Notes: generated by a model from the letters alone, not told the origin. 64,000 bases of DNA from an uncultured Dehalococcoidia bacterium (GCA_964637315.1 CAZWTT010000001.1:149366-213365), one strand, 5' to 3'; numbered from the stretch's first letter, positions 11,762 through 63,521 are shown. A program made the numbers and translations.

Positions 11762-11886
11762 CAACGCGGCCCTAGTCCTGCTGTCGCGGGACAGGTATTC
11801 ATCAAAGGGAAAATCTGAGAACTCAGGTTGCTTCAAGACAGGCCTCCTACCGTGGAGTGACCGGAAAATATGACCTCGACAACCCA

Positions 11887-11943
11887 TGGTGGGGAAGGCG
11901 GGACTCGAACCCGCACGCTCTTTCGAGCACATGATCCTAAATC
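11887..11943 (-). repeat. 3' half of tRNA-Leu with CCA (att direct repeat)
   Basis: 11890-11943 matches 15333-15386 at 52/54 nt (hand count). Confidence 0.92.
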
Positions 11944-12397
11944 CCATTCGAACCGTTTTGCAAGGTGCGCCTAAGTACGGATCACTAGGGTTGGGGCTCG
12001 ATTTCGTCCGTTACTGTCCGCCCGTGTGTCGCTGCGTTGCTGTCAACATTGATGTCAAATTATTTGAAACTGGATCCCGGACTGGCCGGTTGCAAAGTGC
12101 AATACAGAGTCTTTCAAGGAGTTGCTCTGCGCCGAGTCAATTCAGGGCGCTCCAAGGGGACTCCAACTTCAACGATTTCCACGATCACGCTGGTTTTCCC
12201 AATGCCAAAGCATGCTCGATGGATCGGCGTTACTTGACCGTCTGTCCAAGCAGAATCCAGTTCATGTTCGAAATTTGCCCGCAGCCTTCGGAGGGTGCCA
12301 ACCCAGTCGGGCAAATCCCTGCATACCAAGACTACGTCGTCTGGTGAGGCATCCTTGTCCCTAAAAAATGCGCGCATCGTGCTGACTGTGAGCCGTA

Positions 12398-12517
12398 CGC
12401 CTCCCTGAGCTCGTTGATGATCTGCTCTGGCGTGTGTCTCTTCCTCGGCATTTCGCCCCCTTTCTCTCCAACCCAGCACTAACTTTAGTTCTGGACCAGT
12501 TTTTGGGGGGCAGGTCA
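12398..12517 (-). mobile_element. IS3-family left end remnant (IRL plus start of OrfA)
   Basis: TGACCTGCCCCCCAAAAAACTGGTCCA followed by ATG at 12451 reading MPRKRHTPEQIINELREA, then homology is lost. Confidence 0.75.
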
Positions 12518-12579
12518 AGGTGTGCGTTAGACTCCCAACCTCCTGAATCTGGCATTGGGGTGCAGGTCAGTGACGTTGA

Positions 12580-13965
12580 CTACACTCGTTTGCGTCTGAC
12601 CTTCTTCAGCTTGCCAAACACCGCTCCTTTGACGAGTTTCCGGTCCTCGCCGTCGAAACGAAAAAACGAGGAGGCGTCGATTCTCAGGCTGAGGCCAAGC
12701 CGGGCGACGAGCCGGTATTTCACCAGGGTCAAGATGACGGTGGTGATCACCGTTTCTACCGCTGCGCCTATCACTCCTATTCCAAGCATTAGGGCGGGCG
12801 ATAGCGCGAAGTAGGACAGCCTGCGAACGGCAAACATGATGAATAAGATCCGCTGGGACTGCATCGCCTCTACAAGCGGGGTTGTAACGGTGTTGTATGC
12901 GTTCAAGATGTAACGCAACAGCAGCAGTAGGAACAGTGGCAGAACCAGAGGGAAGAAGTCAGGGAAAAGGAATTTGAATACCGGGTAAGCTAAGGCGCCC
13001 CCAGCCATAGCCATCAGCACATTGAGCTGGACGCTGTACTGTAGAGTCTTGTTGAATATTCGCCGGAGCTGGGCCGGATCGCCGACCCGCCTGGCCATTA
13101 GCGGTGACAGGACTGTTTTTAAGGGCAGCCCGACTTTGACGAACCCGACGGATCGCTTAGCAAGTGTGTAGACGCCCACAGCCTCGACATCAAGAATGCC
13201 GGCCATAATCCAATTGGTGGCACTCTCGGTCAGCTGGGTGGCAATGGCAGTGAGCGCATCCCATTTTCCGTGCGCTTTGAATATGCCGGGCAAAATCCAG
13301 CCCGGGTGAGGAGTGTGAAATCGCAGATAGGCTGAGGATCGAACGAGGACGGGAAGAGATACCGCCAGCCAGATAGCGTTTGCGATGATGTCGGCTTCCA
13401 GGACGCCCCGGACTCCCCGGTCCAGTACCAGAACCAGCACCAGGATCGCGATAAGCTTAGTGACCGCATTTAGCACAGGGCGAGCGGCGAGCGCACCGAA
13501 TTTTCCGTGGCTGGTGAGGCCGGTCTGGGCAATGTTATCGAGTCCGGACATGGCAACGAGGATCGCAACAAGGCTCATCCATTCCGGCGGCACCGAGGGC
13601 GGAAGGCGGTCGCCGAAAACGAAAGTGAACAGAGCAACCCCGCCGCCTATCACCAATCCTAAGACCAACTGAAGGGCCGAGAACTCCAACAGAAGACGTC
13701 TGACACGTCCAAACTTCTTGGCGCCTATCTCTATGGAGATGTCGGCCGTGACTGTACGCGTGGCGCCGAGTTTGAAGACGGAACTGACGGCGAGGTTTAC
13801 CGCAAAGGCGATCACGTACAGGCCGTAGTCGCGAACGCCGAGTTCCCAGGTCAGAATTACCATCGTGGCCATTCGAATGGCGATACTCAGATACTGGGAG
13901 ACGGCGAGTGGAATCGAGCCGCGAGCCACGCTCGAGCCGGTAACTTTATCCGGAACGTTCTTCAA
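12580..13965 (-). CDS. Wzx-type oligosaccharide flippase (polysaccharide biosynthesis protein)
   Basis: 461 aa, about 12 hydrophobic segments, LGVRDYGLY and EAVGVYTLA motifs of PST/MOP flippases. Confidence 0.8.
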   Translation of the reverse strand: MKNVPDKVTGSSVARGSIPLAVSQYLSIAIRMATMVILTWELGVRDYGLYVIAFAVNLAVSSVFKLGATRTVTADISIEIGAKKFGRVRRLLLEFSALQLVLGLVIGGGVALFTFVFGDRLPPSVPPEWMSLVAILVAMSGLDNIAQTGLTSHGKFGALAARPVLNAVTKLIAILVLVLVLDRGVRGVLEADIIANAIWLAVSLPVLVRSSAYLRFHTPHPGWILPGIFKAHGKWDALTAIATQLTESATNWIMAGILDVEAVGVYTLAKRSVGFVKVGLPLKTVLSPLMARRVGDPAQLRRIFNKTLQYSVQLNVLMAMAGGALAYPVFKFLFPDFFPLVLPLFLLLLLRYILNAYNTVTTPLVEAMQSQRILFIMFAVRRLSYFALSPALMLGIGVIGAAVETVITTVILTLVKYRLVARLGLSLRIDASSFFRFDGEDRKLVKGAVFGKLKKVRRKRV

Positions 13966-14095
13966 AGGGTCAGTTGTCCACCAGGGCCAGCCGGTGACCC
14001 ATTCGGCACGCGACGGCGAGAAAAGAATGCGACTCCCAATCTACCAGCAACCGGTTCCTATAGGCTGGTTGTGAATTCGATTGGGGGTGTCATAG

Positions 14096-14308
14096 TTGTG
14101 TTGTCGATGGGCCAACAGATTCGTAGCCCTTGAACGGGATGCTCAGGCGTTGGCCGAGGCCATAAAGAGATTGACCACAGACCCAACGAAGAGGATTGAA
14201 GTGGACGCTCATAGCCGAAAACCGGCCGCTGAGTATGGCTGGAGCCACTTGGCCACGATATTCAAGAGACCGAACCTCAGGGTGAGAGCCTCCGAAGAAC
14301 ACGGATGA
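14096..14308 (+). pseudogene. C-terminal remnant of a GT4 glycosyltransferase
   Basis: DAQALAEAIKRLTTDP...EYGW matches the GT4 C-terminal pattern. Confidence 0.6.
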
Positions 14309-14865
14309 TCGATATCGCCACGACAATTAACGGCTCCCGGCCCACGTATGGAGGCGTCACCTTTGCCTCGAAACCGGCGGCGCTGCGTCAACTGCAGATG
14401 GTACGGGAGATTGAGACTCACCTCGGGGACACCCCCGGGGCAGTCGGGCTCGAGGTCGGTGCGAAGAGTGTGGAACCTTCGACGCTGCTCGACGCGTTCG
14501 GCATTCGATGCGTGCGGCTGGACGTTCAAGACAGGGAGGACCGCCGAGGGTTGATTCTGGGCGATGGGGGCCAGTTACCGTTTCGGACCGCCTGCCTCGA
14601 CTATGTGGTGGCCTCCAATGTCCTGGCCCATGTAGATGACGTGGAGGCCGCCCATCCCGAGGGTGGCTCACCCTCAATCGCCAAGCCGGGATTAGCGGGC
14701 AGATGGCCGCTCCCGTTGGTTTTGCTGACGGCCCCTTTTCATTCAATTGCTCTCAAGAGTCTCGAAATCGCTATCAGGGCCGTACTTAAGGCGAAGTGGG
14801 AACCGCCCACCGGAGAAGGCGACAAACATCCAGAGTCCTACTCTGGATGGGAGGGGCAGGGGTAG
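14305..14865 (+). pseudogene. Class I SAM-dependent methyltransferase, probably degraded
   Basis: LEVGA, LDV, GDGGQLPF..LDYVVASNVLAHVDD; the sequence loses methyltransferase character after about residue 115. Confidence 0.6.
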
Positions 14866-15222
14866 GGAGATAGGTGGCGGGCGTGAAGGATCTTCTTCAT
14901 TCCGAGGTCAGCACCCTGCTGCATTGAGCCTGACCACGGGTGATCGGAGCAGTGGTGCGTCTGGATCGCTAGCCAACGCCGGTTGAGCTAGGATGGCCTC
15001 TCTTGGGGGCGGTGTAGCCTCGCTCGGAAAACTGCTCCTATTTCATCGGGGTTACCAGCAGGATCTTCACGTCGCCCACCTACCGTTTCCCGACGACCAA
15101 CCACTGCGTCGCGAAAACCTTTGGTACCCGGCCCTCCAGAAGGCGCCTTTGACCGGCACTCGAAGCCAACAGAGTGGTCACTCCGTCACCGGTTTCCTCA
15201 AATCCTGGTTATTGCTAAGGCT

Positions 15223-50845: not shown

Positions 50846-51657
50846 GCAGACCCAGGGTGATGACGGTCGCCGGGTCCGACTCGGGCGCCGGCGCCGGCAT
50901 CCAGGCCGACCTCAAGACGTTCGCCGCCCTCGGCGCCTACGGTACTTCCGTTGTCACAGCTATTACCGCGCAGAACACTCTCGGCGTCACAGCCGTGCAC
51001 GAGGTCCCAATCGCGACCATCGAGAAACAAATAGATAGCGTAATGGAGGACATCGGTGCCGATGCCGTCAAGACCGGTATGCTCGCCAGCGCTGAGATCA
51101 TCGAGGCCGTCGCACAAGGCCTGGGACGGCACGCCGTCAAGCGGTTGGTGGTGGACCCGGTGATGGTCGCGACCTCCGGCGACCGTCTGCTGAAAGAGGA
51201 CGCACAGGAGGCGCTCACTAGGTACCTGGTGCCGATGGCGGCGCTCGTCACACCCAACGTGCAGGAGGCGTCTGTCTTGGCCGACCGGCCCATCGAGACG
51301 ATGGAGCAAGTGCAGGACGCCGCACGGACCATCGCCGATCTGGGTGCGAATGCGGTTGTCATCACCGGGGGTCTGGGCTCCGGCCCGGCGACCGACCTTC
51401 TCTACGCTGGGGGAGAGTTCAAGGCGTTCACCAACGCCCGCATCGCCACTACCAGCACCCACGGCACCGGCTGCACGTTTGCCTCGGCCGCAGCAGTTGG
51501 ACTGGCCAAGGGAATGGGGGTGCGGGAGGCGGTGGCGACGGCCAAGCGCTATGTACTTGCTGCCATTCGTGGCGCATACCCGGTCGGCTCCGGAAACGGA
51601 CCTGTGGATCACTTCCACGGGCTCATCCGCGAGGAAGGCGTTCAAGAGGACAGGTGA
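50833..51657 (+). CDS. thiD: Hydroxymethylpyrimidine/phosphomethylpyrimidine kinase
   Basis: AGSDSGAGAGIQADLK, VKTGML, DPVM, TPN, HGTGC. Confidence 0.96.
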   Translation: MADVGRPRVMTVAGSDSGAGAGIQADLKTFAALGAYGTSVVTAITAQNTLGVTAVHEVPIATIEKQIDSVMEDIGADAVKTGMLASAEIIEAVAQGLGRHAVKRLVVDPVMVATSGDRLLKEDAQEALTRYLVPMAALVTPNVQEASVLADRPIETMEQVQDAARTIADLGANAVVITGGLGSGPATDLLYAGGEFKAFTNARIATTSTHGTGCTFASAAAVGLAKGMGVREAVATAKRYVLAAIRGAYPVGSGNGPVDHFHGLIREEGVQEDR

Positions 51658-51782
51658 AGCGAAGAAAACAAGTGGGTGGCGAGGGAGAGTTTCTACGTGC
51701 CGTGGCACCCGGTATAATTGCCGATGGCTCCGGGTGGACGGCATCCATGCCGCTCGGCTGACCGTAACTCAGGGAGGTCTGC

Positions 51783-51983
51783 ATGGACTCACAGGACAAA
51801 CAAGGGATGGGAAGCTCCCGCAGGGACTTCTTAAAAAAGATACCGCTGGGTGTGGCCGGAGCATTCGTGCTCACCACGCTGGGTGGCGGACTGCTCCGAC
51901 GCGGCCGCGGCGGTCGCGGTCAGATTGAGTTCGCGAAAGACTCGATCTTCCGTCCGCGAGACGGCGGACCGACGGAGGCCTAG
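51783..51983 (+). CDS. 66-aa protein with a twin-arginine (Tat-like) motif
   Basis: GGAGG SD; SRRDFLK followed by a hydrophobic stretch; TATAAT at 51713. Confidence 0.7.
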   Translation: MDSQDKQGMGSSRRDFLKKIPLGVAGAFVLTTLGGGLLRRGRGGRGQIEFAKDSIFRPRDGGPTEA

Positions 51984-51986
51984 GCG

Positions 51987-52667
51987 ATGCAGATGGTCAC
52001 ACGCCCGGGCGCAATGATCCTGGGATCGCGGCCCTGGGCGCTGCTGAGCAAGCCCGGTCTGTCGCTGTTTGAGGCGCTCCATCCGTCCGCGACGTATGTG
52101 CACAAGCTGGCCATGTCCCTGGCGCTCGTCGGAGTGCTGGTGGGCCTGGCGCGAGCGCGTTTTTTCTTGCCAGACAACCCGGTGCCGATAACCTTCCAGG
52201 GTTTTGGAGTGCTGTTGATCGGTGGGGTGCTGGGCTGGCGCTGGGGCCTGTTCTCGATTCTCGTCTACTACTTCATGGGCATGGCCGGTGTGCCGGTTTT
52301 CCAGGGCGGCGGTAATGGCTGGGCCTACACCGGGCAAGGTGTGACCGGCGGATACCTGATCGGCTTCATCGCCTCGGCTTGGCTGGTGGGCTACGTGTCA
52401 CAGCGCGGCTGGAACCGTGGCCGATCGATGTGGACGATGGTCTTGGGGATGTTGGTGGTCTACCTGCCTGCCATGCTGTGGCTCCGGTACGGTGACTTCT
52501 CCTGGCCGGCCGCCGGGGAGCTGTTCTCCTCGGGGATGTACCCGTTCATTCCGGGCGACCTGGTGAAGGCGATGCTCGCGGCCGTGGTCGTCGGGTTGGT
52601 CTGGAAGGTGGCCGACCGACGGGCCGCCGAGCGGGAAGAGAAGCAAGAGCGGAACGATACCGGCTAG
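51987..52667 (+). CDS. bioY: Biotin transporter BioY
   Basis: PVPITFQ, G.PVF.GG, TGGYLIGF, PFIPGDLVK. Confidence 0.92.
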   Translation: MQMVTRPGAMILGSRPWALLSKPGLSLFEALHPSATYVHKLAMSLALVGVLVGLARARFFLPDNPVPITFQGFGVLLIGGVLGWRWGLFSILVYYFMGMAGVPVFQGGGNGWAYTGQGVTGGYLIGFIASAWLVGYVSQRGWNRGRSMWTMVLGMLVVYLPAMLWLRYGDFSWPAAGELFSSGMYPFIPGDLVKAMLAAVVVGLVWKVADRRAAEREEKQERNDTG

Positions 52668-52690
52668 CGGGTACGAATCGAGCAGAACGA

Positions 52691-52721
52691 AAAAGGCCCC
52701 CGGCATTGCTGGGGGCCTTTT
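52691..52721. terminator. Bidirectional intrinsic terminator
   Basis: AAAAGGCCCCCGGC-ATT-GCTGGGGGCCTTTT. Confidence 0.88.
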
Positions 52722-52800
52722 ATTTTAGCTACTCTCCGCTCACTTTGTTCGCTCTATTTACCCTTCGCGCGAGCGCTTATCACTGCTCTGCTCGGCCTCA

Positions 52801-52841
52801 CCTCGCTCGTCAGGACTTCTTCGCGAAAGCGCTCATCGCTT
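52801..52841 (-). repeat. 41-bp repeat copy A (inverted relative to 58156-58196)
   Basis: Reverse complement AAGCGATGAGCGCTTTCGCGAAGAAGTCCTGACGAGCGAGG; 36/41 identical to copy B (hand count). Confidence 0.85.
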
Positions 52842-52858
52842 TGCACAACGACGCCGAA

Positions 52859-53737
52859 TTAGCTTTCGACGAGCTTGAGGCTGGAGTCTAGGTCGTTCCA
52901 GGGGATCATGGCATCCACCCAGCTTCCCAATCGGTTCAGGTAGACGTTGGCGGCATCGAGGAGATCCTTTAGTTCGGCGGTCGACGCCGCCGACTCGGCC
53001 GAGTCGGCCGCTTGGCTGATCAAGTCGGTTGCGGACGGGAAGCCCCACTTGCCCAGGCGAATCTCGGTACGCCGCAGATAGGCGGCGGCCACTTGGCCGG
53101 CCTGTGTGACGGGCAGCTCGTCGGCTAGCTGGCGAGCGACGTGCAGGTTCTCGGTGCCCCAGAACAGGTCGAAGTTGGAGTAGATGATACATGGGAGGTT
53201 GCCCATGGGCGGTCGCCTGTGGGTGCGCATGGCGGTCACGTCGGTGGGCTCTGTCTCCCAGACGTCCGCCGTCGCGACCCGCAGCGCGTCCGTGGCTGCG
53301 TTGCCGGTACTCGAAGGCTGCTTTTGGGTCTTCTCGGTGTAGGTTGTACCTCCCATGCGGACGGTGGCTGGTAGGGCACCGGCCGCCAATATGCGCTTGC
53401 CGGCGGCGACCGCCTTGGGCAGGTCTTCGGGGACGACCTTGGCGAACAGGTTGATGTAGCCGAAGGGCATGATCTCGCCGTAGAACAGACATAGCGTCTG
53501 GCTGCGCGGATAGTAGCCGATGTCCCCCGGCTCGACCGAAGGCACCTGGTTCTCGCCCGGAGGGGTGTAGAACGGGAGCATTGCGATGGTCTCGTCACCG
53601 GCGAACTTGGCGTTCACGCCGAACGTCGTGGTGGGCATGGCGCGCTCGAAGGCGGCGCAGGTCTCGGGAGCGTCGTCGCTGAGCAGTTCGGCCCGGACCG
53701 TCTCGCCGCCCATCTCCATCTCGAATATCTTTCCCAT
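52859..53737 (-). CDS. DUF3830/cyclophilin-like domain plus helical C-terminal domain; McbB/cucumopine synthase-like
   Basis: AELL.D.AP.TC, ENQ...PGDI.YY, LFYG, VVPED, VW.TEP, Y.NRL.SW....PW. Confidence 0.65.
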   Translation of the reverse strand: MGKIFEMEMGGETVRAELLSDDAPETCAAFERAMPTTTFGVNAKFAGDETIAMLPFYTPPGENQVPSVEPGDIGYYPRSQTLCLFYGEIMPFGYINLFAKVVPEDLPKAVAAGKRILAAGALPATVRMGGTTYTEKTQKQPSSTGNAATDALRVATADVWETEPTDVTAMRTHRRPPMGNLPCIIYSNFDLFWGTENLHVARQLADELPVTQAGQVAAAYLRRTEIRLGKWGFPSATDLISQAADSAESAASTAELKDLLDAANVYLNRLGSWVDAMIPWNDLDSSLKLVES

Positions 53738-53753
53738 CAGTTAAGCCACTCCT

Positions 53754-55106
53754 CTAATAAACCTTGTTTGAGCCGACGAGGGGTATTCCGCTCATGGCGG
53801 AGGCATCAACCGACAAGGCACGCAGGTCCTCCGGCTCAAGGTCGTGGATGTCGCGCTTGCCGCAGGCGCGGGCTAGGAGCTGAATCTCCAGAGTCAGTGC
53901 ATTGAGGTAGTTGAACACCCTGTCCGCAGCCTCTTCCGGGTCCAGGCGTGCCTCTAGCGCCGGGTCTTGCGTTGTGATTCCCACGGGACACAGGCCAGTG
54001 TGGCAGTGGTGGCAGGCGCCTGCCCGCGTACCCAGAGCAGCATAGTCTTTGGTATAGATGGCCTTGTTGCAGTTGAGGGCGATCAATGCGGCCGTGCCGA
54101 TGGCCACACCCTTGGCTCCCAACGCCAGCGCCTTGGCCATGTCGGCGCCGTTGGTGAGGCCGCCGGAGACGACCAGGTCGACCTCGTCCTCCAAGCCCAG
54201 TTCCTCGAGTGCGCGAACGGCCTCCGCGGTGGCGGGCATGGTGGGGATGCCGGTGTGGTCGAGCTGCAGCTCCGGCGACGCGCCGGTGCCGCCCTCCATG
54301 CCGTCTATGACGATGACGTCCGCGCCCACCTTGGCCGCGAGCTTGACGTCGGCGGTGACCCGTCCCGCTCCGAGTTTGAGGAATATCGGAACACGGCCAT
54401 CGGTAACTTCCCGCAACTCTTCCATCTTGATCATCAGGTCATCGGCGCCCATCCAGTCGGGGTGCCGAACCGGGCTTCGCTGGTCGACGCCGGCTGGCAG
54501 GTCGCGCTGATCGGCTATGGTGTCGGAGACCTTCAGGCCCAGCAGCAGCCCGCCGGTGCCGGGCTTGGCCCCCTGGCCGATGATGATCTCGAGTGCGTTG
54601 GCCGAGCGCAAGTCGTCAGGGCTGAAGCCGTAACGGCTGGGTAGGACTTGATACATGAGGAGCTTGGACGCCTCGCGCTCGGCCGTCAGCATGCCGCCGT
54701 CGCCGGTGACGGTCATGGTGCCGATGCGGGTGGCCGCCGTTCCTAGTGCGACCTTGGCTGTCGCCGACAACGCTCCGTAGCTCATGCCGGCGATGTAGAC
54801 GGGTGTCTCCAGCCTGATCGGCTCGGAAGCGTTGCGCGAACCCAGCACTGTTTCGGTGCTGCACTTCTCCCGGTAGCCTTCGAGTGGCACTCTGCTCATA
54901 CCCGAGGTAATGAACGTCAGGTCGTCGAAGGACGGCAGCTTGCGCAGCGTGCCGAAGCCGCGGATGCGGTAGCGACCCAGCTCTGACTTGGTGTGGATGT
55001 CCTCGATGACCTCGGGGCCGAAAAAGAAGCTCTCTCGCAGGAGCGGTCGGATCTCTTCCGATTCGCCGTTGGTGGGGCCGCCATTATTCGTTGCGCCGTC
55101 GCTCAA
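53754..55106 (-). CDS. glxD: FMN-binding glutamate synthase family protein (N-methylglutamate synthase subunit C-like)
   Basis: LEGYREKC, GMSYGALS, TGDGGM, GQGAKPGTGG, CHHCHTGLCPVGI.TQ; TTGA overlap with glxC. Confidence 0.88.
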   Translation of the reverse strand: MSDGATNNGGPTNGESEEIRPLLRESFFFGPEVIEDIHTKSELGRYRIRGFGTLRKLPSFDDLTFITSGMSRVPLEGYREKCSTETVLGSRNASEPIRLETPVYIAGMSYGALSATAKVALGTAATRIGTMTVTGDGGMLTAEREASKLLMYQVLPSRYGFSPDDLRSANALEIIIGQGAKPGTGGLLLGLKVSDTIADQRDLPAGVDQRSPVRHPDWMGADDLMIKMEELREVTDGRVPIFLKLGAGRVTADVKLAAKVGADVIVIDGMEGGTGASPELQLDHTGIPTMPATAEAVRALEELGLEDEVDLVVSGGLTNGADMAKALALGAKGVAIGTAALIALNCNKAIYTKDYAALGTRAGACHHCHTGLCPVGITTQDPALEARLDPEEAADRVFNYLNALTLEIQLLARACGKRDIHDLEPEDLRALSVDASAMSGIPLVGSNKVY

Positions 55107-55798
55107 AGCGCGGTCCTCCAAATCTTGAAATCGGCTTTGTCAAAGTTGTAGAGACGCTTGTCCGAGACGATCTTCTTGAACTCGGACGCATCCGGCACTC
55201 CGGCGACATGGTAGCGGGCGAGCAGGTCGGTCAACTCCCTCGATTCCTCGGGAGCCATGTCCTCTGTGGTCGCCCCGTTGCCCAGATCACTGACGTTGCC
55301 ACGGACGAACATGCGACTCTCGTATATGGAGTCGGCGAAGGCCTCGCCGGTGTCGCCACAGACGATGAAAACGCCCTTCTGGCTGACGAAGCCCGACATG
55401 TAGTCGACCGTTCCGCCGATCACGATCAACCCGCCCTTTTGCGAGATGCCTGTTCGTGGACCGGTGTTGCCATGGACCACCAGCGTGCCACCTCTGATGG
55501 CCGCGCCCGCGGCCGCGCTTGCGTTGCCATGCACGATGACGCTTCCGGACTGCATGTCCGATGCGACGGACCAGCCAGCGTTGCCGGTGACCTCGATGTC
55601 GGCGAGTTGGAGCATGCCACCGCAGTAGTAACCGACATTGCCTTCCAGCACAACCTTGCCGGGCTGGTTGAGGCCGACCGCTAGGTTGTGACGGGACTCG
55701 GTGTGGGTGACCAGCACCTCGCCGTCGGCGGTGAGGCCGGCCTTGATGGCCGTGTTTACTTCCCGGAGGGTGAGGCCTTTTGCGTCTATCGATGCCAA
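55103..55798 (-). CDS. glxC: GXGXG-motif glutamate synthase subunit (MgsB-like)
   Basis: HNLAVGL, GYYCGGM, GXGXG beta-helix repeats, LYNF. Confidence 0.85.
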   Translation of the reverse strand: MASIDAKGLTLREVNTAIKAGLTADGEVLVTHTESRHNLAVGLNQPGKVVLEGNVGYYCGGMLQLADIEVTGNAGWSVASDMQSGSVIVHGNASAAAGAAIRGGTLVVHGNTGPRTGISQKGGLIVIGGTVDYMSGFVSQKGVFIVCGDTGEAFADSIYESRMFVRGNVSDLGNGATTEDMAPEESRELTDLLARYHVAGVPDASEFKKIVSDKRLYNFDKADFKIWRTAL

Positions 55799-56706
55799 GT
55801 GCGCACCGTCCTTGCCGTGGGTTCGTGGACCCTCGTGTTCGCGGTCATCACCGGCTCCAGTGCCACCTCTTCGGAGGCCATGGCGACGAAGCCGTCGTCC
55901 TCCGCCACGATCAGTGGTTTGGTGGAGAAGCGGTCCTTGGCGAAGCCGATGCCGTCCCTGGTGGCTACGAGATACGTGAAGGTCCCGTCGAGGCCCTCGA
56001 TGGAGTCGGTGAGGGCCTCCTCCAGCGAAACCCCCGCCCTTAGACGGTCGGCGATGAAGACCGCGATCACCTCTGAGTCGTTGGTGGTGAGGAACTCGTA
56101 GCCCCGGCGCTGGAAGGAGCGTCGCAGCTTGTTGTCGTTGGTTAGCTGCCCGTTGTGCACCACGGCGATGTCCGGGAAAGGCCGAGCCCAGAAGGGATGC
56201 GAGTAACAGATATCGACTCTGCTCTCGGTGGCCAGTCGCGTATGCGCGATGCCGTGCGTGCCCCGAAACCCGGCGACGTCGTAGACGGACAGTTCGGCGG
56301 CCGGACCCACGTCCTTGATGATCTCCATGGCGTTGCCGATGCTGAAAAGCTCGACCCCGACCGACTCGACCGCGTGGGTGATGCGGGTCATGTGGTCGAG
56401 GTCATTGATGTCTTCTATGCCACGCAGTTCGACGCGGGCGATGTTACCGGAGTACCGCGCGCTCGCTATCGTGGCGACCTCGCCCACCCGGTCGCGTATC
56501 TCCGCGAGCCTAGCTTCGGAGTCTCCACCTTCGCTCTCCAGGTGGACGCGGAGCGCGAGGTGGCCGGTCGGCAGGTCGCCGTACAGGGCCATGCCGGTGG
56601 AGTCGAGGCCGCGGCTGCCGAGCACGGTGGCCATGTCGGTCAGACGCGTCCCGAGGGGCGTCTCGGAACCGCCGTTTATGTAAAAGAAACCGGCTATGCC
56701 ACACAT
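55786..56706 (-). CDS. glxB: Class II (Ntn) glutamine amidotransferase (MgsA-like)
   Basis: MCGIAG, RGLDSTG, HTRLATES, SHPF, VHNGQLTN, NDSE, LDG.FT. Confidence 0.88.
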   Translation of the reverse strand: MCGIAGFFYINGGSETPLGTRLTDMATVLGSRGLDSTGMALYGDLPTGHLALRVHLESEGGDSEARLAEIRDRVGEVATIASARYSGNIARVELRGIEDINDLDHMTRITHAVESVGVELFSIGNAMEIIKDVGPAAELSVYDVAGFRGTHGIAHTRLATESRVDICYSHPFWARPFPDIAVVHNGQLTNDNKLRRSFQRRGYEFLTTNDSEVIAVFIADRLRAGVSLEEALTDSIEGLDGTFTYLVATRDGIGFAKDRFSTKPLIVAEDDGFVAMASEEVALEPVMTANTRVHEPTARTVRTWHR

Positions 56707-56772
56707 GGTGTTGTCTCGCTGGGAGTGGTTGGGCCCCACGCGGTCGGCAGGGCTTTTTGTGACTAGTAAAGC

Positions 56773-56820
56773 AGTCTATGGTCGCCGGTCGGGGCCAGTC
56801 AATACACGTTTCTGGCCCCG
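56773..56820 (-). promoter_or_regulatory. Promoter of the glxBCD operon with an overlapping inverted repeat
   Basis: Minus strand TTGACT-N18-TAGACT; CGGGGCCAG-N13-CTGGCCCCG spans the -35 box. Confidence 0.6.
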
Positions 56821-56905
56821 CCGGTGCTAGACTTACCATCTCGGCACCGCGACCCGACGGCAACGCCGTCTGCTAAGCGGCAGTACCTCGAATTTGTGAG
56901 GCTTT

Positions 56906-58141
56906 GTGGCTTTGGCCGGTGCTCTTTCTCGCATAAAGACCTTCGAGTCCCTTCGGCTCCGTGACTTCCGGCTGCTGTTCGCGGCGAGCATGGGCACATC
57001 CGGCGGATACTTTTTCCAGCAGGTCATCATCGGGTGGTTAACCTACGACATCACCCGCTCGCCGTTCCTGACGGCTCTCGCCCTGGGGCTCGACACGCTT
57101 CCCAACCTGATTGGAGGGCCGATGGGAGGCGTGTTGGTCGATAATCTCGATCGCCGGAAATTGTTGATACTGATCCCTGCCTACCAGTGCACGCTGAGCG
57201 TGGCCTTCGGCCTGATTGTATTGCTCGGGTGGCTCCAGACCTGGCACATCTTCACGTTCATCGTTTTGATGGGCTTTTCCTGGGTATTGGTGGAGCCGGC
57301 GCGCATGGCGATCACTCCGGGCATCGTGGGTGAGGCTAGGCTGGTGAACGCCTTCTCGCTGATCCAGGTGGCGTTCAACTCGACCCGTTTGGTGGGGCCG
57401 TTCATCGGCGGCGTCGTACTGGCTGCATTTGGTCCCGGTCCAACCCTGTTCGTGGAAGCGGGGTCGCAGTTCATGGCCGTGGGAATGGCGGTAATGATGC
57501 GGGCCCCAGTCCAGTCGGTGACCAGGGTCACGGTCGGGTCCGCGATGAGGGACCTGAGGGAATCGATCAGGCTGGTAAGGGACACTCCCGTGTTGCAAGG
57601 GTTGATGCTGTTTGCGTTGCTCACCCCGCTGGTGGTGGTGCCCTTCGCCTACGGGCTGATGCCTGTATTGGCGGCGGATATCTTCGAAGTGGGGCCGGCC
57701 CGGTATGGGACGCTCCTATCCCTGATCGGAGTGGGCGCCGTGGCTGGCACCGTGGTGCTGGCCTCGATGGGGGACGTCCCGCACAAGGGACTCGCCATTG
57801 TCGTCTCTCTATTCACCGCCGCCGTCGGCCTAGCCATATTGGCCGCCTCGTCGTCGTTCTCAGTCGCCGTCGTGGCCGCGCTGGTGATCGGCGCCGGCTA
57901 TGCCGGGACGCAGACGCTTGTTACATCTCTCCTCCAGCGATTGGTGGCTCCCGAGTTCCGGGGCCGCATCTCGGGGATCTGGATGATGACCTGGGGAACG
58001 GTTGCCGGGGGCGGGCTGGTGGCCGGCTGGCTGGCCGATGCCTATGGGGCGCCGACCTCCGCGGCGGTGGGCGCAACGATCATCGTCGCGGCCGTGCTGG
58101 TGATCGGGGCGACCTACAAGACGGTCCGGTCGTTGGAGTAA
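56906..58141 (+). CDS. MFS transporter (MFS_3-like)
   Basis: FESLR.RDFR, GGVLVDNLDRRK motif A, about 12 TM, EFRGRI. Confidence 0.92.
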   Translation: MALAGALSRIKTFESLRLRDFRLLFAASMGTSGGYFFQQVIIGWLTYDITRSPFLTALALGLDTLPNLIGGPMGGVLVDNLDRRKLLILIPAYQCTLSVAFGLIVLLGWLQTWHIFTFIVLMGFSWVLVEPARMAITPGIVGEARLVNAFSLIQVAFNSTRLVGPFIGGVVLAAFGPGPTLFVEAGSQFMAVGMAVMMRAPVQSVTRVTVGSAMRDLRESIRLVRDTPVLQGLMLFALLTPLVVVPFAYGLMPVLAADIFEVGPARYGTLLSLIGVGAVAGTVVLASMGDVPHKGLAIVVSLFTAAVGLAILAASSSFSVAVVAALVIGAGYAGTQTLVTSLLQRLVAPEFRGRISGIWMMTWGTVAGGGLVAGWLADAYGAPTSAAVGATIIVAAVLVIGATYKTVRSLE

Positions 58142-58155
58142 CCGTTCGAATGCCG

Positions 58156-58196
58156 AAGCGATGAGCGCTTGCGTGAAGAAGCCTTGATGAGCGAGG
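58156..58196 (+). repeat. 41-bp repeat copy B, running into hairpin GCGAGGC-TCC-GCCTCGC
   Basis: AAGCGATGAGCGCTTGCGTGAAGAAGCCTTGATGAGCGAGG. Confidence 0.85.
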
Positions 58197-58212
58197 CTCC
58201 GCCTCGCGGAGC

Positions 58213-59553
58213 TTAATACAACTCCAAATACTCGGCAGACTCCCAGTCGGTGATGTGGGCCCTGAAACGGGCAAGCTCGTATTGCCGCATGACGGTGTAG
58301 GCGGTCACGAAGTCGTTGCCCAGTAGGTCTGCGAACGCCGTGTCCGACTCTAGGGCGGCGAGTGATTCCTCCAGGGTGCCGGGCAGTTTTTCGTATTGAG
58401 CATCGTCCTCCACGGGACCGGCGCTCGGGTCCGGGGTCTCGGCGGCGACGCCCTTTCCCAGTCCAAGCAACCCGGTGGCCAGCACCCCGGCGACCGCGAG
58501 ATACGGGTTGGCGAGGCCGGTGCCGAGCCGGTTTTCCAGGTGCGTGTTGTCGTCACGGGAGTTCTTCGCCCGCACGGCCGCGCTGCGGTCCTGTGGCCCC
58601 CAGCTGATGTTGGACGGGGCGAAATGGTGGGGAACGAACCGGCTGTAGCAGTTGATGGTGGGAGCCAGCAGCGCCATGGACGCCCGGGTATGGTCCAGCA
58701 TGCCCTGTATGAACTGGCGTGCCGTGGACGACAAACCATCCGAGTCCTCTAGATCGAGGAAGACGTTGGCGCCGGTGGCCTTGTCGGTGAGACCGATGTG
58801 AATGTGGCAGCCGGATGCCGCATTGTCGGGGAGCGGCTTGGTCATGAAGGTAGCGTTGTAACCCATCTGGTGAGCGATGGTCTTGACGCCGTTCTTGAAA
58901 GTGAAGCCGTGATCGGCCGCTGCAAGCCCCTCAGCCGGCGCAAAATTGATCTCGAACTGGGATGGAGCGTACTCGCAGTTGGCGGTGATGATGTCGATCC
59001 CGGCGCGCGGCATCTCCTCAAGGATCCTGTCGATGACCGGCAGGTAGCGGTTGCGGATGGTGTTGAAGATGTGCAGGCCGCCGAAGTAGGGTTCGGAGTC
59101 GTCCGGTGACAGGACGTAGAACTCGTACTCGAGGCCCACCTTGACCTCGTAGCCCATTGCGTCTGCCTTCGCCAAGAGCTGGCGTAGTAACCAGCGCGGA
59201 CCCACCCGGTGTGGGGTGCCGTCCTCCCATTCGCCCTCGCAGATAAGGCGCGCCGTATTGTCCAACCAGGGAACGACAATGGCGGTGTCTAGGTCGGGCT
59301 TGAGGTACTGGTCGGCGTAGTTGACCTCTTCGTTGTACAGGGTCCCGGGCACGACTGACGACGCGGTGTCGAGCACGACGGTGCCTCCGTACATGTTCAG
59401 GCCCTTTTCGGCGTAGCTCTCGACGTGGTCAAGGGGGACGAGCTTCGATCGGCTCACCCCGTGCATGTCGGGCAACTCGAACTGGACGTGGGTGATGCCC
59501 TGCTCACCCCAACCCCTGACGAGGTCCGCGATGGTCCTGTTGCTTTTCGCCAT
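58213..59553 (-). CDS. Glutamine synthetase family protein (probable gamma-glutamyl-amine ligase)
   Basis: DMHGVSRSK, GLEYEF, EYAPSQFE, ATFMTKP, SGCHIH, ENR, NPYL; AAGGA SD. Confidence 0.88.
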   Translation of the reverse strand: MAKSNRTIADLVRGWGEQGITHVQFELPDMHGVSRSKLVPLDHVESYAEKGLNMYGGTVVLDTASSVVPGTLYNEEVNYADQYLKPDLDTAIVVPWLDNTARLICEGEWEDGTPHRVGPRWLLRQLLAKADAMGYEVKVGLEYEFYVLSPDDSEPYFGGLHIFNTIRNRYLPVIDRILEEMPRAGIDIITANCEYAPSQFEINFAPAEGLAAADHGFTFKNGVKTIAHQMGYNATFMTKPLPDNAASGCHIHIGLTDKATGANVFLDLEDSDGLSSTARQFIQGMLDHTRASMALLAPTINCYSRFVPHHFAPSNISWGPQDRSAAVRAKNSRDDNTHLENRLGTGLANPYLAVAGVLATGLLGLGKGVAAETPDPSAGPVEDDAQYEKLPGTLEESLAALESDTAFADLLGNDFVTAYTVMRQYELARFRAHITDWESAEYLELY

Positions 59554-59585
59554 TGTTTTATCCTTCCTGTTGATGTGTGGCCGCC

Positions 59586-60641
59586 TTAACTGAAGGCCAG
59601 GGCCCGGGCCGGGTTGTGGATGAGTATCTTGTCGATCTGGGCCCCGGTAAATCCCATGCTCCTCATGCGCGGAACGATATTGTTGATGATGTGGGCGTAG
59701 CCCTTGCCACCGTTGCGACGCATGTGCCACTTGCGGCAGATGTCGTGGGCGATGACCACCTGATCCTCAAAGCCCTCTTCTAGGAGAAAGGCGATCCTGT
59801 GCAGCCTCTCGCCGTCGTTGGGCATGTTGATGACGCGGTCCACGAACGGCCCGGTGTCTTCCCAACTGAAGATGTCGTACTCTAGGAAGCACCCGGTCTC
59901 AGCCAGCGACTTGAGGGCGCCGAAGTCTTCGATAGCCGCATCTAGGTGTCCCAGAATGCAGCGGACGGGGTCCGCGCCACCGGCGACCAGCTCGTCGAGG
60001 ATGCCCGCCGGCGAATCATCGTGCGTGCCGGAGTGGATGGTGACGGGTGCTCCGGTCTCGGCCTGGGCCCTGCCGGACGCGCGCAGGATTTTGATTTCGT
60101 TGTCGGTGAGGGGATAGAAATTGCCCACCTCGCCGATGATGCCGCTCTTGATTCCCGTGTCGCCGACGCCCACGGTCACGTCGGTGACGATCTCGTCGGT
60201 CAGTTGGTCTTCAGTGCGCTCGTCCATGTCCGGCGGGTGGGACCAGGTGACGTAGTAGCTCGACCCCATGACCACGTTCAGGCCGGTCGCGCGAGAGATG
60301 CGCGCCAGTGCAAGAGGGTCGCGGCCGATGCCGACGCTGGTGGTGTCGACGAAAGACCCGCCGCCGACGTGCTTGAATTCCAGTACGCCCTCGATTGCCG
60401 CCGTCTCTTCGAACATCCTGCTGCCATCCAAGTGATGGTTGTAGAGGCCGTCGGGCTGAGACGTCATCTCGGCGTAGAAGGGGATGTCCCTGAGGGCACG
60501 CATACTGGCGTACTCGGACTCGCGGAAGTAGCAGGTTGTGTCCAGCAGCATGTGCTCGTGCATCAGCGTGATGCCGAGTTGTCCCGGCTCAATCGGTCCG
60601 AGAACCGTCTGCACCATGCCTGTGGGGCCTTCGTCGGCCAT
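59586..60641 (-). CDS. Phosphotriesterase-related amidohydrolase (Php-like)
   Basis: VQTVLGPI, MHEH, GIGRDP, GIIGEVG, TIH, GHLD, AHD; GAGGAGG SD. Confidence 0.92.
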   Translation of the reverse strand: MADEGPTGMVQTVLGPIEPGQLGITLMHEHMLLDTTCYFRESEYASMRALRDIPFYAEMTSQPDGLYNHHLDGSRMFEETAAIEGVLEFKHVGGGSFVDTTSVGIGRDPLALARISRATGLNVVMGSSYYVTWSHPPDMDERTEDQLTDEIVTDVTVGVGDTGIKSGIIGEVGNFYPLTDNEIKILRASGRAQAETGAPVTIHSGTHDDSPAGILDELVAGGADPVRCILGHLDAAIEDFGALKSLAETGCFLEYDIFSWEDTGPFVDRVINMPNDGERLHRIAFLLEEGFEDQVVIAHDICRKWHMRRNGGKGYAHIINNIVPRMRSMGFTGAQIDKILIHNPARALAFS

Positions 60642-60785
60642 TGTCGCCTCCTCGACTTCGTCCATGCCCTGGCGTCGGAGCGGCGGTGGCACCGCCTCGC
60701 CGGGGTGAGCACGTTGTATCACGGGCGACTTGTAGCGTCAACGGCGCCCCAAGCGGATGACCCAAGTGGGTGGAAGGAGGGGTGG

Positions 60786-61802
60786 TTAGAGGGACGCGTC
60801 AACGCGGCGTCGCAGACCCTCGATCCAGCGCGAGACTAGGGCGTCTGAGGAGACGATGACGGCGGACCTGGCAATCATCCAGTACACCCACCTTCGAGTC
60901 ACTTTCGCCGCTTGGCCAGAGGTCAGCCACTGGCGTCGCCTCGCCAGGATGGCAAGTGTCTGCAGACCGATCAGCATGGGCCATAGATTCGCCAACCTGA
61001 GTCGCCGTTCGTGCCCTGGGGTGGCGAGGATGTAGCTCTGCGCCTCGGTGTAGTGGTCCAGTGTGATCTTCATCAAGGCCCGCAGCACCGGCCGCGCCCT
61101 GTCGGAGGCCCCGGGGTCGAGGAGGTCTTCGGGCGACAGACCCAGCGCCGTCAGCTCGTCGAGCGGCAGGTAGCAGCGACCGGTGCGCAGGTCGGCGGGT
61201 ACGTCGCGCAGGATGTTGGTGAGCTGGAGCGCCTTGCCGAAACGGATCCCGGTCTCGGACATGGCGGGAACGTCCCAACCGGACAGCGACCGGATGTGGG
61301 CGGCCGATATCTCGGTCCAGAAGTGGCCCACACATCCGGCGACGAGGTATATGTAGCGGTCCGTGGCCTCGAGGTCTGGTAGCGCTGCCATCTGGCCGGA
61401 GTCCTCCGAGGGAAACGTCGTCAGGTCCATCTCCATGCCCTCGGTGAGGGTGGTGACGACCGACCGAATCCTGCCCGCGTCGGCATCGTCGGTCTCCTCA
61501 AGCCGGGCAAACAAAAGGGGAAGCGATCTGAGCAGTTCGGCCTCGGCGAGTGAGGTCCGGGACGAGACTAGGTCACCGGTGATTCTTTCGAGCGCTACTT
61601 CGGACGACGGCCCGGCGACCTGCGCTCGGAACGCCAGCAGGTGCTTGAGTCGTGAGACCGAGGGAACGGCACGGGTATCGGAGATGGTGTCGGCGGCCCG
61701 TGCCAGCAGGTAGGCTAGCCCGACCGGCGGTCGCAGTGGCTCCAGTAGCACACGCAGCGACAGGTAAAATGTCCGGGAGTTGCGCCTAAGTAGGCTTTGC
61801 AG
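60786..61802 (-). CDS. Squalene/phytoene synthase family protein; non-canonical start likely (CTG 61802 or GTA 61820)
   Basis: SRTFYLSL lies upstream of the first GTG; RAADTISD, Y.YLVAGCVG.FW, LQLTNILRD, GRCYLP. Confidence 0.9.
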   Translation of the reverse strand: MQSLLRRNSRTFYLSLRVLLEPLRPPVGLAYLLARAADTISDTRAVPSVSRLKHLLAFRAQVAGPSSEVALERITGDLVSSRTSLAEAELLRSLPLLFARLEETDDADAGRIRSVVTTLTEGMEMDLTTFPSEDSGQMAALPDLEATDRYIYLVAGCVGHFWTEISAAHIRSLSGWDVPAMSETGIRFGKALQLTNILRDVPADLRTGRCYLPLDELTALGLSPEDLLDPGASDRARPVLRALMKITLDHYTEAQSYILATPGHERRLRLANLWPMLIGLQTLAILARRRQWLTSGQAAKVTRRWVYWMIARSAVIVSSDALVSRWIEGLRRRVDASL

Positions 61803-61816
61803 GTCCGTGTTGGTGG

Positions 61817-62983
61817 CTACGGCGTGTACAGCTCCGTTTCGGCCAGGACAGTCTCGGCGATGGCGCTCTGACCGCCAACCAGCAGCACCCGTCCGTCATC
61901 GAGCAGGCTCGCGGTATACCGGTACCGGTCGAAGTTCATGTCCCCGGCCGATTGCCAAGAGTTGGTGGTTGGGTCGTACAGTTCGGCCGACTGACGCCTG
62001 CCGACGCCTCCCGCCACAAGCACCCGTCCGTCGTTGAGAAGTGTGGCGGTGTGCTCGGCGCGCGAGATCGACATCTCGCCCGCGGCAGACCATGTGTTGG
62101 TCGCCGGGTCGTACACATCCGCACTCGCCCTTTTCCCCATGCCGCCGGCGACCATTACGCGGCCGTCCGACAGCAACGTCGCGGTATGCAGGGCCCGTCC
62201 CGTGCTCATCTCCCCCGCCGCCGACCAGCTATCGTTGGCCGGGTCGTACACCTCGGCGGTTGCGATGTAGGGGCCGTCGAACTTGCCGCCACCAGTAACG
62301 AGGACGCGGCCGTCCGACAGGAGTGTGGCGGTGTGCAGGGCCCTGCCGATGCTCATCTCCGCGGTCAGGGTCCACTCGCCCGTCGCCTGATCGTAAATCT
62401 CGGAATGGGCCTGCTGCTGGAAGGTTTTTGACTTGCCCCCGGTCACGATCACGCGACCGTCGGTGAGCACGACCGGCGCCCCCTGCTCCCGGTGCTTGAG
62501 CATCTTGCCGGTCATGGTCCACTCGCCGGTGTCCGGGTCCCATACCTCGGCCGTCTTGTGAGGGTCAAGTCGGTTGTCGTTGCCCCCGGCGAGCAGGACC
62601 TTGCCGTCCGGTAGCACGGCTATGGTGGGGAACTGGCGGTCTTCGAGCGTGACGCCGGTGTTCGTCCATCGGCCCGAGGCCGGGTCGTAAATCTCGGCGG
62701 TCCGGTGGACTATGGGCCATTCGCTGACGCCCTTGCCCCTGCCGCCAACTGCCAAGACGCGACCGTCGGGCAGCTTGACAGCGCCGTGGTACTGGCGGTC
62801 GTTACCCATCTCGCCGGTGAGCGCGAAGGCGCCGACGGCACCCACTCCGCTCACCGGCGAGATGGAGACGCTCTCAGTGCCGTCCGACGTGGCCGTGGTT
62901 TCGGAAGCCGGAGAACTGCTACACGCCACCGCCACGAGTGCCACTAGGGCTAGCGAGGCGGCGAGTGTCCAAAAGCGGCCCAT
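61817..62983 (-). CDS. Kelch-repeat beta-propeller lipoprotein
   Basis: Lipobox VAVAC; 7 repeats of R..HTATLL.DGRVLV.GG...AE.YDP...W. Confidence 0.88.
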   Translation of the reverse strand: MGRFWTLAASLALVALVAVACSSSPASETTATSDGTESVSISPVSGVGAVGAFALTGEMGNDRQYHGAVKLPDGRVLAVGGRGKGVSEWPIVHRTAEIYDPASGRWTNTGVTLEDRQFPTIAVLPDGKVLLAGGNDNRLDPHKTAEVWDPDTGEWTMTGKMLKHREQGAPVVLTDGRVIVTGGKSKTFQQQAHSEIYDQATGEWTLTAEMSIGRALHTATLLSDGRVLVTGGGKFDGPYIATAEVYDPANDSWSAAGEMSTGRALHTATLLSDGRVMVAGGMGKRASADVYDPATNTWSAAGEMSISRAEHTATLLNDGRVLVAGGVGRRQSAELYDPTTNSWQSAGDMNFDRYRYTASLLDDGRVLLVGGQSAIAETVLAETELYTP

Positions 62984-63088
62984 CGCGGGTGCGTGACGAG
63001 GAGTTTTGGTTTGTAAAATCGCTATTTGTATTTCCACGACGCTTCTGCGAGGTTCGATCTCGGCTTGGTGGTATCAGCCCCGAGGGGC

Positions 63089-63159
63089 CTGCCCGGCCAG
63101 GATTCGAACCTGGGTTAAAGGCTCCAAAGGCCTCTGTGCTACCACTACACCACCGGGCA
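63089..63159 (-). tRNA. tRNA-Gln (anticodon TTG)
   Basis: TGCCCGG acceptor stem (U1-A72), GAGGC-CTTTGGA-GCCTT anticodon arm, GGTTCGAATCC; CCA not encoded. Confidence 0.95.
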
Positions 63160-63203
63160 AAGAAGGCAGACGGCTCGTGAGAGTCGCCACATGAGAAAGA
63201 GCC

Positions 63204-63521
63204 TCAGGTCAGCCACTCGTCGTCCCCAGGCATCTCGTCGTCGTCGGCCGGCGTGTATCGTGGCCCTCCCCCGAGGTAGCCGAGCCGCTGAAGCAGCTGG
63301 TGCGCGTTGGGTAACCAGCCGATCCCGAAGGTCGTGGGAGCGAACAGCCGATCATCCGATGGGTTCCACAGTCTTTGCTTCACTTCGTTGATGGAGGGGA
63401 CCCGCCAGTCGAACGGCACACCCAGGAACCGGCCGTGTGACTTTTTCGACTTTATTGAATAGGCGACTGTGGCGACCGTAAACAGGAGTAGGGCGGTCTT
63501 GATTTTGTTTCGCTTGCTCAC
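63204..63521 (-). CDS. Small membrane protein (DUF5808-like)
   Basis: GVPFDWR.P, WNP.D.RLF.P..FGIGW..N; GTG start; TATAAT upstream. Confidence 0.72.
   Translation of the reverse strand: MSKRNKIKTALLLFTVATVAYSIKSKKSHGRFLGVPFDWRVPSINEVKQRLWNPSDDRLFAPTTFGIGWLPNAHQLLQRLGYLGGGPRYTPADDDEMPGDDEWLT

Follow-up and report, generated by a model that had tools for sequence, protein, structure and literature searches.

Organization of the locus

The window analysed here is a stretch of 64,000 nucleotides from the genome of an uncultured Dehalococcoidia bacterium (GCA_964637315.1, CAZWTT010000001.1:149366-213365; positions are counted from its first letter), in which an earlier reading, made without database searches, had singled out seven genes as a variant of the N-methylglutamate pathway of amine assimilation. 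We propose that these genes include two cooperating minus-strand units that, with a ligase of their own and an extra enzyme, pass the nitrogen of an organic amine on to glutamate via an N-substituted glutamate. The proposal draws on analogy with known pathways; we consider its chances to be about even, and the amine is probably larger than methylamine.

All seven genes were confirmed by a list of open reading frames (ORFs) and by family scans, in the arrangement that the sequence-only reading had described: a glxB-glxC-glxD-McbB-like operon, an MFS gene on the opposite strand, and a hydrolase gene 32 nucleotides upstream of a ligase gene. The first minus-strand unit encodes a GlxB/MgsA-like class-II (Ntn) amidotransferase (55786..56706, 306 amino acids, GATase_6/7), a GlxC/MgsB-like GXGXG subunit (55103..55798, 231 amino acids, PF01493), a GlxD/MgsC-like flavin mononucleotide (FMN) subunit with a glutamate-synthase domain (53754..55121, 455 amino acids, PF01645, E 5.8e-96) and, as its last gene, an McbB-fold protein (52859..53737, 292 amino acids). 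Neighbouring genes in this operon overlap or lie 16 nucleotides apart, the latter being the distance by which the McbB-like gene follows glxD. The second minus-strand unit begins with a PTER-like amidohydrolase of the phosphotriesterase family (59586..60641, 351 amino acids, PF02126, E 5.8e-74), followed by a ligase of the glutamine synthetase (GS) family (58213..59553, 446 amino acids, PF00120, E 5.5e-86). The spacer between the two is exactly 32 nucleotides, as the hydrolase TAA ends at 59586 and the ligase ATG is at 59553, and both starts are preceded by good ribosome-binding sequences (GAGGAGG for the hydrolase, AGGAAGG for the ligase). Between the two units, on the plus strand, sits an MFS transporter gene (MFS_3 / DHA3-like; 56906..58141, PF05977, E 4.8e-44). 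All seven proteins fall short of the curated NCBIfam cut-offs, the hydrolase scoring under every one of them, and we found no description of this gene combination in the literature.

The source assembly is 1.76 Mb long and 88% complete, and its nearest relatives among public genomes are marine Dehalococcoidia of the SAR202 group. The stretch itself is present in seawater and marine metagenomes from 13 studies.

The ligase belongs to a distinct clade

The ligase scores below the cut-offs of all three models to which it might be assigned: 261.5 bits with TIGR03105 (GmaS; cut-off 469.6), so that it is not GmaS by equivalog score, 245.4 bits with TIGR00653 (GlnA; cut-off 429.15), and 238.1 bits with NF045547 (PuuA, GGputSyn; cut-off 650). 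In a tree of 125 rows, it forms one clade of 80 rows with its 79 relatives (support 100), on a long stem and apart from Escherichia coli GlnA, from E. coli PuuA, which occupies a long separate branch, and from Methylobacterium GlnT/GmaS, the single named GmaS reference in the tree. GlnT instead groups, with support of 99, with a paralogue on contig C13 of the source genome.

The residues at the active site point in the same direction. The ligase and 21 aligned family members keep the equivalents of E129, E131, E212, E220, H269, H271, R321, R339, R344, E357 and R359 (E. coli GlnA numbering), which we take to bind ATP, metal and glutamate. At the four positions that presumably make up the ammonium site of GlnA, on the other hand, the ligase has lost the residues: D50 is replaced by Y55, S53 by T58 and E327 by F311, and Y179 is deleted, although the alignment is less secure around D50 than around E327. 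The tyrosine and phenylalanine replacements and the Y179 deletion occur in all 22 aligned family sequences, while the S53 position varies (Thr, Ala, Val), and the same four ammonium-site residues are also missing in PuuA and GmaS. By these sequence criteria, the ligase is neither GlnA, GmaS nor PuuA, and belongs to a clade of its own; we predict that it is a gamma-glutamyl-amine synthetase. The view that it is not a plain GlnA, on which the sequence-only reading depended, is thus upheld.

Members of the ligase clade in Actinomycetota, Dormibacterota and Bacillota have as neighbours genes for PuuD-like amidotransferases, class-III aminotransferases, aldehyde dehydrogenase and amino-acid permeases, which are contexts of gamma-glutamylation catabolism. 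The ligase thus resembles PuuA of the E. coli putrescine pathway in the kind of ammonium-site replacements and in the surroundings of its clade relatives. However, whereas in that pathway the gamma-glutamyl product is oxidized and then hydrolysed by PuuD, the gamma-glutamyl amide would here go to a GlxBCD-type synthase. Separately, a cultured Rhizobium plasmid carries a 47%-identical ligase beside genes for a class-I amidotransferase, an ABC transporter and glyA, with no glxBCD, an observation that is suggestive only.

The synthase follows the ligase

The gene architecture of MgsABC is found at the locus: adjacent genes for a class-II amidotransferase with a cysteine after the initiator methionine, a GXGXG protein, and an FMN protein with the glutamate-synthase domain. 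GlxD, GlxC and GlxB are respectively 59%, 46% and 38% identical to MgsC, MgsB and MgsA of the Methylobacterium glxBCD-glnT cluster, and GlxB starts with M-C-G-I-A-G, as does Methylobacterium MgsA.

In a 29-row tree of GlxD, the 23 copies associated with the new ligase (from Chloroflexota, one actinomycete and two Alphaproteobacteria) are split, with support of 100/100, from the six glnT-associated MgsC proteins (from Alpha-, Beta- and Gammaproteobacteria, Acidithiobacillia and a Mycobacterium); members of one group are 53-61% identical to those of the other. The split tracks the partner ligase, not taxonomy, and this argues for two co-evolving ligase-synthase pairs. As both the ligase and GlxD lie outside the GmaS and MgsC clades, the caution of the sequence-only reading that the amine is not necessarily methylamine was justified.

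The locus shares with the N-methylglutamate pathway the three-subunit synthase, an adjoining GS-family ligase and, elsewhere in the genome, a dehydrogenase of the soxB/D/A/G family. It differs in that the ligase comes from another clade, that GlxD belongs to a sister clade that follows this ligase, that there are no mgd genes at the locus, that an extra McbB-fold gene is conserved, and that a PTER-like hydrolase precedes the ligase. The sequence-only reading had noted that mgd and sox genes are lacking, and we likewise found no soxB/D/A/G-family gene in the window; SoxD and soxB-family matches occur only on contigs C13, C14, C7, C11 and C20. The search of the genome for mgdABCD that it had recommended was not, however, entirely negative. 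At C13:39161-46960 (7129-14959 in the extracted locus, L086), downstream of an amidase gene lie, in order, a GS paralogue scoring above the GmaS cut-off (557.1 against 469.6 bits with TIGR03105) and soxD, soxA, soxG-like and soxB-family genes, with no glxBCD of their own. Judged from its sequence, this looks like a locus for GmaS and an N-methylglutamate-dehydrogenase-like enzyme.

This second locus is the basis of the main rival explanation, which we regard as unlikely and which overlaps with ours: an ordinary methylamine (N-methylglutamate) pathway spread over two loci, with GlxBCD in the window and GmaS and mgdABCD-like genes on C13, the neighbouring ligase being a second feeder or unrelated. 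Besides the gene content of C13, it is favoured by the 58-59% identity of GlxD to MgsC of full pathway clusters and by the absence from the 88%-complete genome of any other PF01645 gene like glxD. Moreover, a single GmaS that passes the cut-off is present in each of five relatives with complete or near-complete genomes, beside SoxD in three of them, and none of the five has a second GlxD-like gene; the 3.2-Mb chromosome of G002 has only the cluster copy, and the extra PF01645 gene of G001 is only 34% identical. (In the record of the relative G003, the matches to GlxD, GmaS and SoxD on contig C1 recur on contig C3 with near-identical scores, at C1:2207671-2208660 and C3:38811-39800 and at C1:2343412 and C3:3665, which suggests that the record holds a duplicated contig.) Given the GmaS and mgd-like genes on C13 and the single glxBCD set, methylamine use through the same GlxBCD is possible, and GlxBCD may serve both the adjoining ligase and the true GmaS with its Mgd-like enzymes. 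Against an ordinary methylamine pathway, however, the adjoining ligase is not GmaS, the GlxD clade follows the new ligase, and the tight conservation of ligase, McbB-like gene and glxBCD, described below, is left unexplained.

Another alternative, which we think very improbable, is plain ammonium assimilation by a divergent glutamine synthetase and a three-subunit (‘split’) glutamate synthase. The genome has neither a GS gene that reaches the GlnA cut-off nor a GltB-type gene in its 88%, and the only PF01645 gene of G002 is likewise that of the cluster. GlxD also keeps a CxxCHxxxCP motif, which we considered as a mark of glutamate synthases and rejected, since the motif is also found in MgsC of the Acidithiobacillus caldus and Aquabacterium glnT clusters, which are full N-methylglutamate clusters; among the MgsC proteins compared, only that of Methylobacterium lacks it. 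However, the ligase has no ammonium site, the source genome has a glutamate dehydrogenase gene by which glutamate could be made, and two relatives (G004 and G005) have not only this cluster but also a full-length GltB frame (1535-1538 amino acids) beside a further GS-family gene (317-332 bits with TIGR03105, below the cut-off). Ammonium assimilation would also leave the McbB-like gene with no role. A C-terminal GS remnant in two frames is present at C6:1373-1836; this remnant and the region C1:22897-23595 are listed, together with the whole genome, for the observation on the missing GlnA and GltB genes and the presence of glutamate dehydrogenase.

The fourth protein has the fold of McbB but not its catalytic glutamate

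The protein encoded by the last gene of the glx operon is McbB-like by fold and homology, as judged from a structural model and sequence profiles. Pfam recognizes in it only a cyclophilin-like DUF3830 barrel, within the first 125 residues (residues 8-125), which leaves a C-terminal helical half. The Cucumopine_C domain (PF18631) reaches 14.6 bits, against a gathering threshold of 27 (E 0.039), and several homologues with 53-68% identity have a precomputed PF18631 match. The AlphaFold (AF2) model, built with 28 homologues, has a pLDDT of 91.6, and its top Foldseek match is McbB (3x27; E 2.1e-15, TM 0.82/0.77), to which a VIA alignment relates it with a Z of 30.4 and a root-mean-square deviation of 2.7 Å over 286 residues. 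The family profile matches 3x27 by sequence as well (E 7.6e-10), and in a protein atlas the protein falls among DUF3830 + Cucumopine_C clusters. The label given to it by the sequence-only reading is therefore right at the level of fold. KslB matches only the barrel half of the model, which fits the swapped domain order of KslB described in the available text of PMC12012969.

Like McbB, KslB and cucumopine synthase (PF18631), the protein combines two domains, in the McbB order of barrel and then helical bundle. It differs from them in its low identity (17-18%), in an invariant proline at the position of the catalytic Glu97, and in its partners, a GS-family ligase and GlxBCD. In the mcb cluster, the partners are amide synthetase and decarboxylase genes.

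The same part of PMC12012969 equates the catalytic glutamate of McbB, Glu97, with Glu274 of KslB. In the family profile alignment, Glu97 (chain E118, if a 21-residue tag is assumed), His87 and Arg72 of McbB correspond to Pro91, Thr81 and Pro66 of the protein encoded in the window. Pro91 and Thr81 are invariant in the McbB-like family, and the stretch is ungapped between the anchors YG and VVPED. Other invariant positions of the window protein are K44, E49, E62, D72, Y75, Y76, R227 and R269. His87 and Arg72, which are replaced along with the glutamate, are the tryptophan-binding residues of McbB. Since the catalytic glutamate is lost, we do not file the protein as a Pictet-Spenglerase, and neither a Pictet-Spengler product nor the opine-like product that the sequence-only reading had entertained is supported. 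(A complex prediction of the McbB-like protein with GlxD, run without controls, gave a score of 0.00, from which we draw nothing.)

The ligase, glxBCD and the McbB-like gene recur together

As the McbB-like domains are sparsely represented in the phylum (both occur in 3 of the 401 Chloroflexota genomes searched, the source genome included), a co-occurrence test in that sample was not practicable, and we therefore collected two sets of loci, with the ligase as seed for one (80 loci in genomes) and the McbB-like gene for the other (77 loci in metagenomes). The ligase-seeded loci include GlxD in 22 cases, all three glx genes in 21, the McbB-like gene in 22, and GlxD together with the McbB-like gene in 19, while 35 loci have a second GS paralogue instead. 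When the set is restricted to loci whose flanks both reach 8 kb (35 loci), GlxD is present in 17, the McbB-like gene in 17 and both in 16; a second GS paralogue occurs in 13, and 5 lack both GlxD and a second paralogue. In the McbB-seeded set, 53 of the 77 loci contain at least one of glx genes, ligase and DAO-family oxidase, and in most of the remaining 24 the flanks do not exceed a few kb. Among the 17 loci whose flanks both reach 6 kb, glx genes are found in 16, the ligase in 15, both in 14 and a DAO-family oxidase in 9.

At least three gene orders exist: the marine order of the window; the order of soil Ktedonobacteraceae, with glxBCD, a DAO-family oxidase, the McbB-like gene, the ligase and permeases; and an order in which the McbB-like gene directly precedes glxBCD. 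Because the arrangement is found again in numerous genomes, with the genes in several orders, it is more than chance. In clusters of the Ktedonobacteraceae type (L030, L034, L128, L132 and many soil metagenome loci), barrel and helical bundle are often encoded by two adjacent ORFs, whereas SAR202 has one fused gene. In Ktedonobacteraceae, the McbB-like gene abuts the oxidase gene, whose product is closest to N-methyltryptophan oxidase, ThiO and soxB; homologues of this oxidase that are 35-36% identical are encoded on C14 and C7 of the source genome. The amino-acid permeases beside these clusters have weak and mixed NCBIfam matches (tyramine, GABA, ethanolamine, cationic) and give no substrate clue. 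In G003 the cluster is split, with 0.4 Mb between the hydrolase, ligase and MFS genes, which have stayed together, and a second group made up of glxBCD, the McbB-like gene and bioY, so there are two units, and the McbB-like gene belongs with glxBCD.

The sequence-only reading depended on the hydrolase and ligase genes being conserved together with glxBCD. This was borne out, in SAR202 and Ktedonobacteraceae, for the ligase, glxBCD and the McbB-like gene, but not for the hydrolase, which adjoins the ligase in only a few close relatives (see below).

A predicted pathway for amine nitrogen

From its genes, folds, clades, residues and neighbourhoods, the locus can be read as a variant of the gamma-glutamyl / N-alkylglutamate amine pathway, with an McbB-like protein as an added component. 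In a first step, expected in some lineages, the PTER-like amidohydrolase would release a primary amine from an N-acylated precursor. The ligase would then couple the amine to the gamma-carboxyl of glutamate using ATP, a role suggested by the fact that its catalytic residues are kept and its ammonium site is lost. By analogy with MgsABC, GlxB would cleave the gamma-glutamyl amide, and GlxC and GlxD would move the amine onto 2-oxoglutarate at the FMN site, yielding an N-substituted glutamate. A flavin amine oxidase or dehydrogenase would oxidize this compound to glutamate and an aldehyde; the putative enzyme is encoded in the cluster in Ktedonobacteraceae, and here the candidates are those on C14 or C7 or the set on C13.

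The least certain step is that of the McbB-fold protein, which might form or hydrolyse an imine (Schiff base), that is, carry out the first half of Pictet-Spengler chemistry without ring closure. We put forward this speculative role because the known relatives begin by joining an amine to 2-oxoglutarate or an aldehyde as a Schiff base (available text of PMC12536604), because the ring-closing residue is lost, and because the gene abuts the oxidase gene in Ktedonobacteraceae.

Several observations weigh against the reading that we favour, and those concerning the hydrolase make its link to the module the weakest part. The hydrolase adjoins the ligase in 11 of the 80 ligase-seeded loci, in each of which the ligase is at least 76% identical, so the link is lineage-restricted. 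It is also one of 22 full-length paralogues in the 1.76-Mb genome (by tblastn, the window copy included). These paralogues are mostly 45-54% identical, and several stand in tandem (e.g. C1:69121-70179, C13:21688-25994, C9:48492-50625 and C3:28954-31073); we found no description of a PTER-like family expansion in SAR202 in the literature. The motifs HEH28, GEVG170, IHSG202, GHLD231 and AHD298, which we take to hold the binuclear-metal ligands of the phosphotriesterase family (HxH, bridging Glu, two His, Asp), are all present. The best solved relative, 9efa, a ‘phosphotriesterase-related protein’, aligns end to end (E 4.1e-68, residues 8-350). According to the available text of PMC12873775, PTER is an N-acetyltaurine / N-acetyl-beta-alanine amidohydrolase, whose first strand-helix unit is followed by a helical insertion and whose polar channel residues are Tyr69, Tyr131 and Arg209. 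The region of this insertion in animal PTER can be aligned with the hydrolase with no long gap, and the equivalent of Tyr131 is kept, but the hydrolase belongs to a many-copy family, and Arg209 aligns to threonine and Tyr69 to histidine (with an inferred offset of 2 between chain and paper numbering); the threonine at the position of Arg209 is a further point on the unfavourable side. Amide hydrolases that are not homologous to it do flank the module elsewhere (an ArgE/DapE deacylase at L119, an AtzE-like amidase at L143 and L159, a DMFase-like protein and an S15 peptidase at L076). The suggestion of the sequence-only reading that the hydrolase frees the amine therefore has a precedent in PTER and a parallel in these unrelated enzymes, but is weakened by the restricted distribution and the many paralogues; that reading was largely sound, but gave the hydrolase too much weight, and the GmaS and mgd-like locus on C13 lay outside the sequence on which it was based.

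In the same L076 locus, from a Rhodospirillaceae metagenome-assembled genome (1757-11329), the dimethylformamidase-beta-like protein, a GntR regulator and the S15 peptidase precede glxBCD and a new-clade ligase.

A second group of unfavourable points concerns the McbB-fold protein and the transporter, and would suit an alternative that we hold to be improbable, namely a biosynthetic cluster in which the ligase and GlxBCD make an N-substituted glutamate or an imine, which the McbB-like protein cyclizes or condenses to an opine-like or carboline-like compound for export by the MFS protein. Along its entire length the fourth protein matches McbB, and the characterized family members described in the available text of PMC12012969 and PMC12536604 are all biosynthetic, cofactor-free enzymes that condense amino acids with 2-oxoglutarate or aldehydes. 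The MFS protein resembles EntS/DHA3 exporters (176 bits with TIGR00900 and 115 bits with EntS, both under the cut-off), which suits product secretion better than uptake. Yet Glu97, His87 and Arg72 of McbB are replaced, the MFS gene is kept at this place in only 10 of the 80 ligase-seeded loci, all from close SAR202 relatives, and we saw no other tailoring or carrier genes. The neighbours of the module elsewhere are hydrolases, permeases, a flavoenzyme resembling N-alkyl-amino-acid oxidases, and PuuD-like enzymes.

Our reading of an amine-nitrogen pathway also has to accommodate that no oxidase gene lies in the window, that no McbB-like gene was found in three loci with glx genes and ligase (L043, L076 and L085, the flanks of L043 being short), that the module is rare among the Chloroflexota genomes searched, that the imine role is purely inferred, and that its steps, including substrate and activities, are predicted from genomic and modelled features.

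SAR202 bacteria rank among the most common cells in the dark ocean, and to our knowledge their use of dissolved organic nitrogen is poorly known. The module differs from the textbook methylamine pathway in three ways: its ligase belongs to a new clade, its synthase to a matching one, and it has an added enzyme whose fold has until now been met only in the synthesis of alkaloids and opines. If its amine were found, the genes would provide a marker set for a class of organic-nitrogen turnover in seawater and soil, which is now probably counted as methylamine use or ‘glutamine synthetase’. In that case, the McbB-like gene would also be the first of the DUF3830 / cucumopine-synthase superfamily with a role in primary metabolism. 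At its boldest, though we think this unlikely, the module would be a new ATP-driven route by which the abundant deep-ocean SAR202 bacteria and soil Ktedonobacteria obtain nitrogen from N-acylated amines (e.g. N-acetylated taurine-like or beta-amino compounds), with the McbB-fold protein as a new kind of enzyme, its scaffold re-used to form or hydrolyse the imine of an N-substituted glutamate without ring closure.

Expression and flanking features

In one sample of a hydrothermal-vent metatranscriptome, contigs match exactly to the McbB-like gene, to glxD, and across the hydrolase-ligase junction (59484-59634). Because DNA carry-over is possible, which also counts against leaning on them for our reading, these contigs give only a weak hint of expression and co-transcription. 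An RNA run, X21, gave no match to the stretch, which is not evidence of absence. A promoter-like site lies upstream of glxB (56802-56773), though the promoter scan yielded no more sites than it did in shuffled sequences, and an Rfam scan of 51500-63500 returned a transfer RNA (tRNA) and one sub-threshold match only, with no riboswitch.

The glx operon ends at a GC-rich, perfectly symmetric hairpin (52691..52721; AAAAGGCCCCC..GGGGGCCTTTT), which is assigned to neither strand and lies between the convergent bioY and McbB-like genes. Its stem has 14 pairs, nine of them GC, and runs of A and T flank it on both sides, so from its sequence it probably stops transcription in both directions.

Upstream of the hydrolase are a gene of the squalene/phytoene-synthase family and one for a Kelch-repeat protein (60786-63037), followed by a tRNA gene (63089-63159). 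The Kelch protein has a weak match to the radical copper oxidase GlxA, and both genes are retained upstream of the hydrolase in close relatives.

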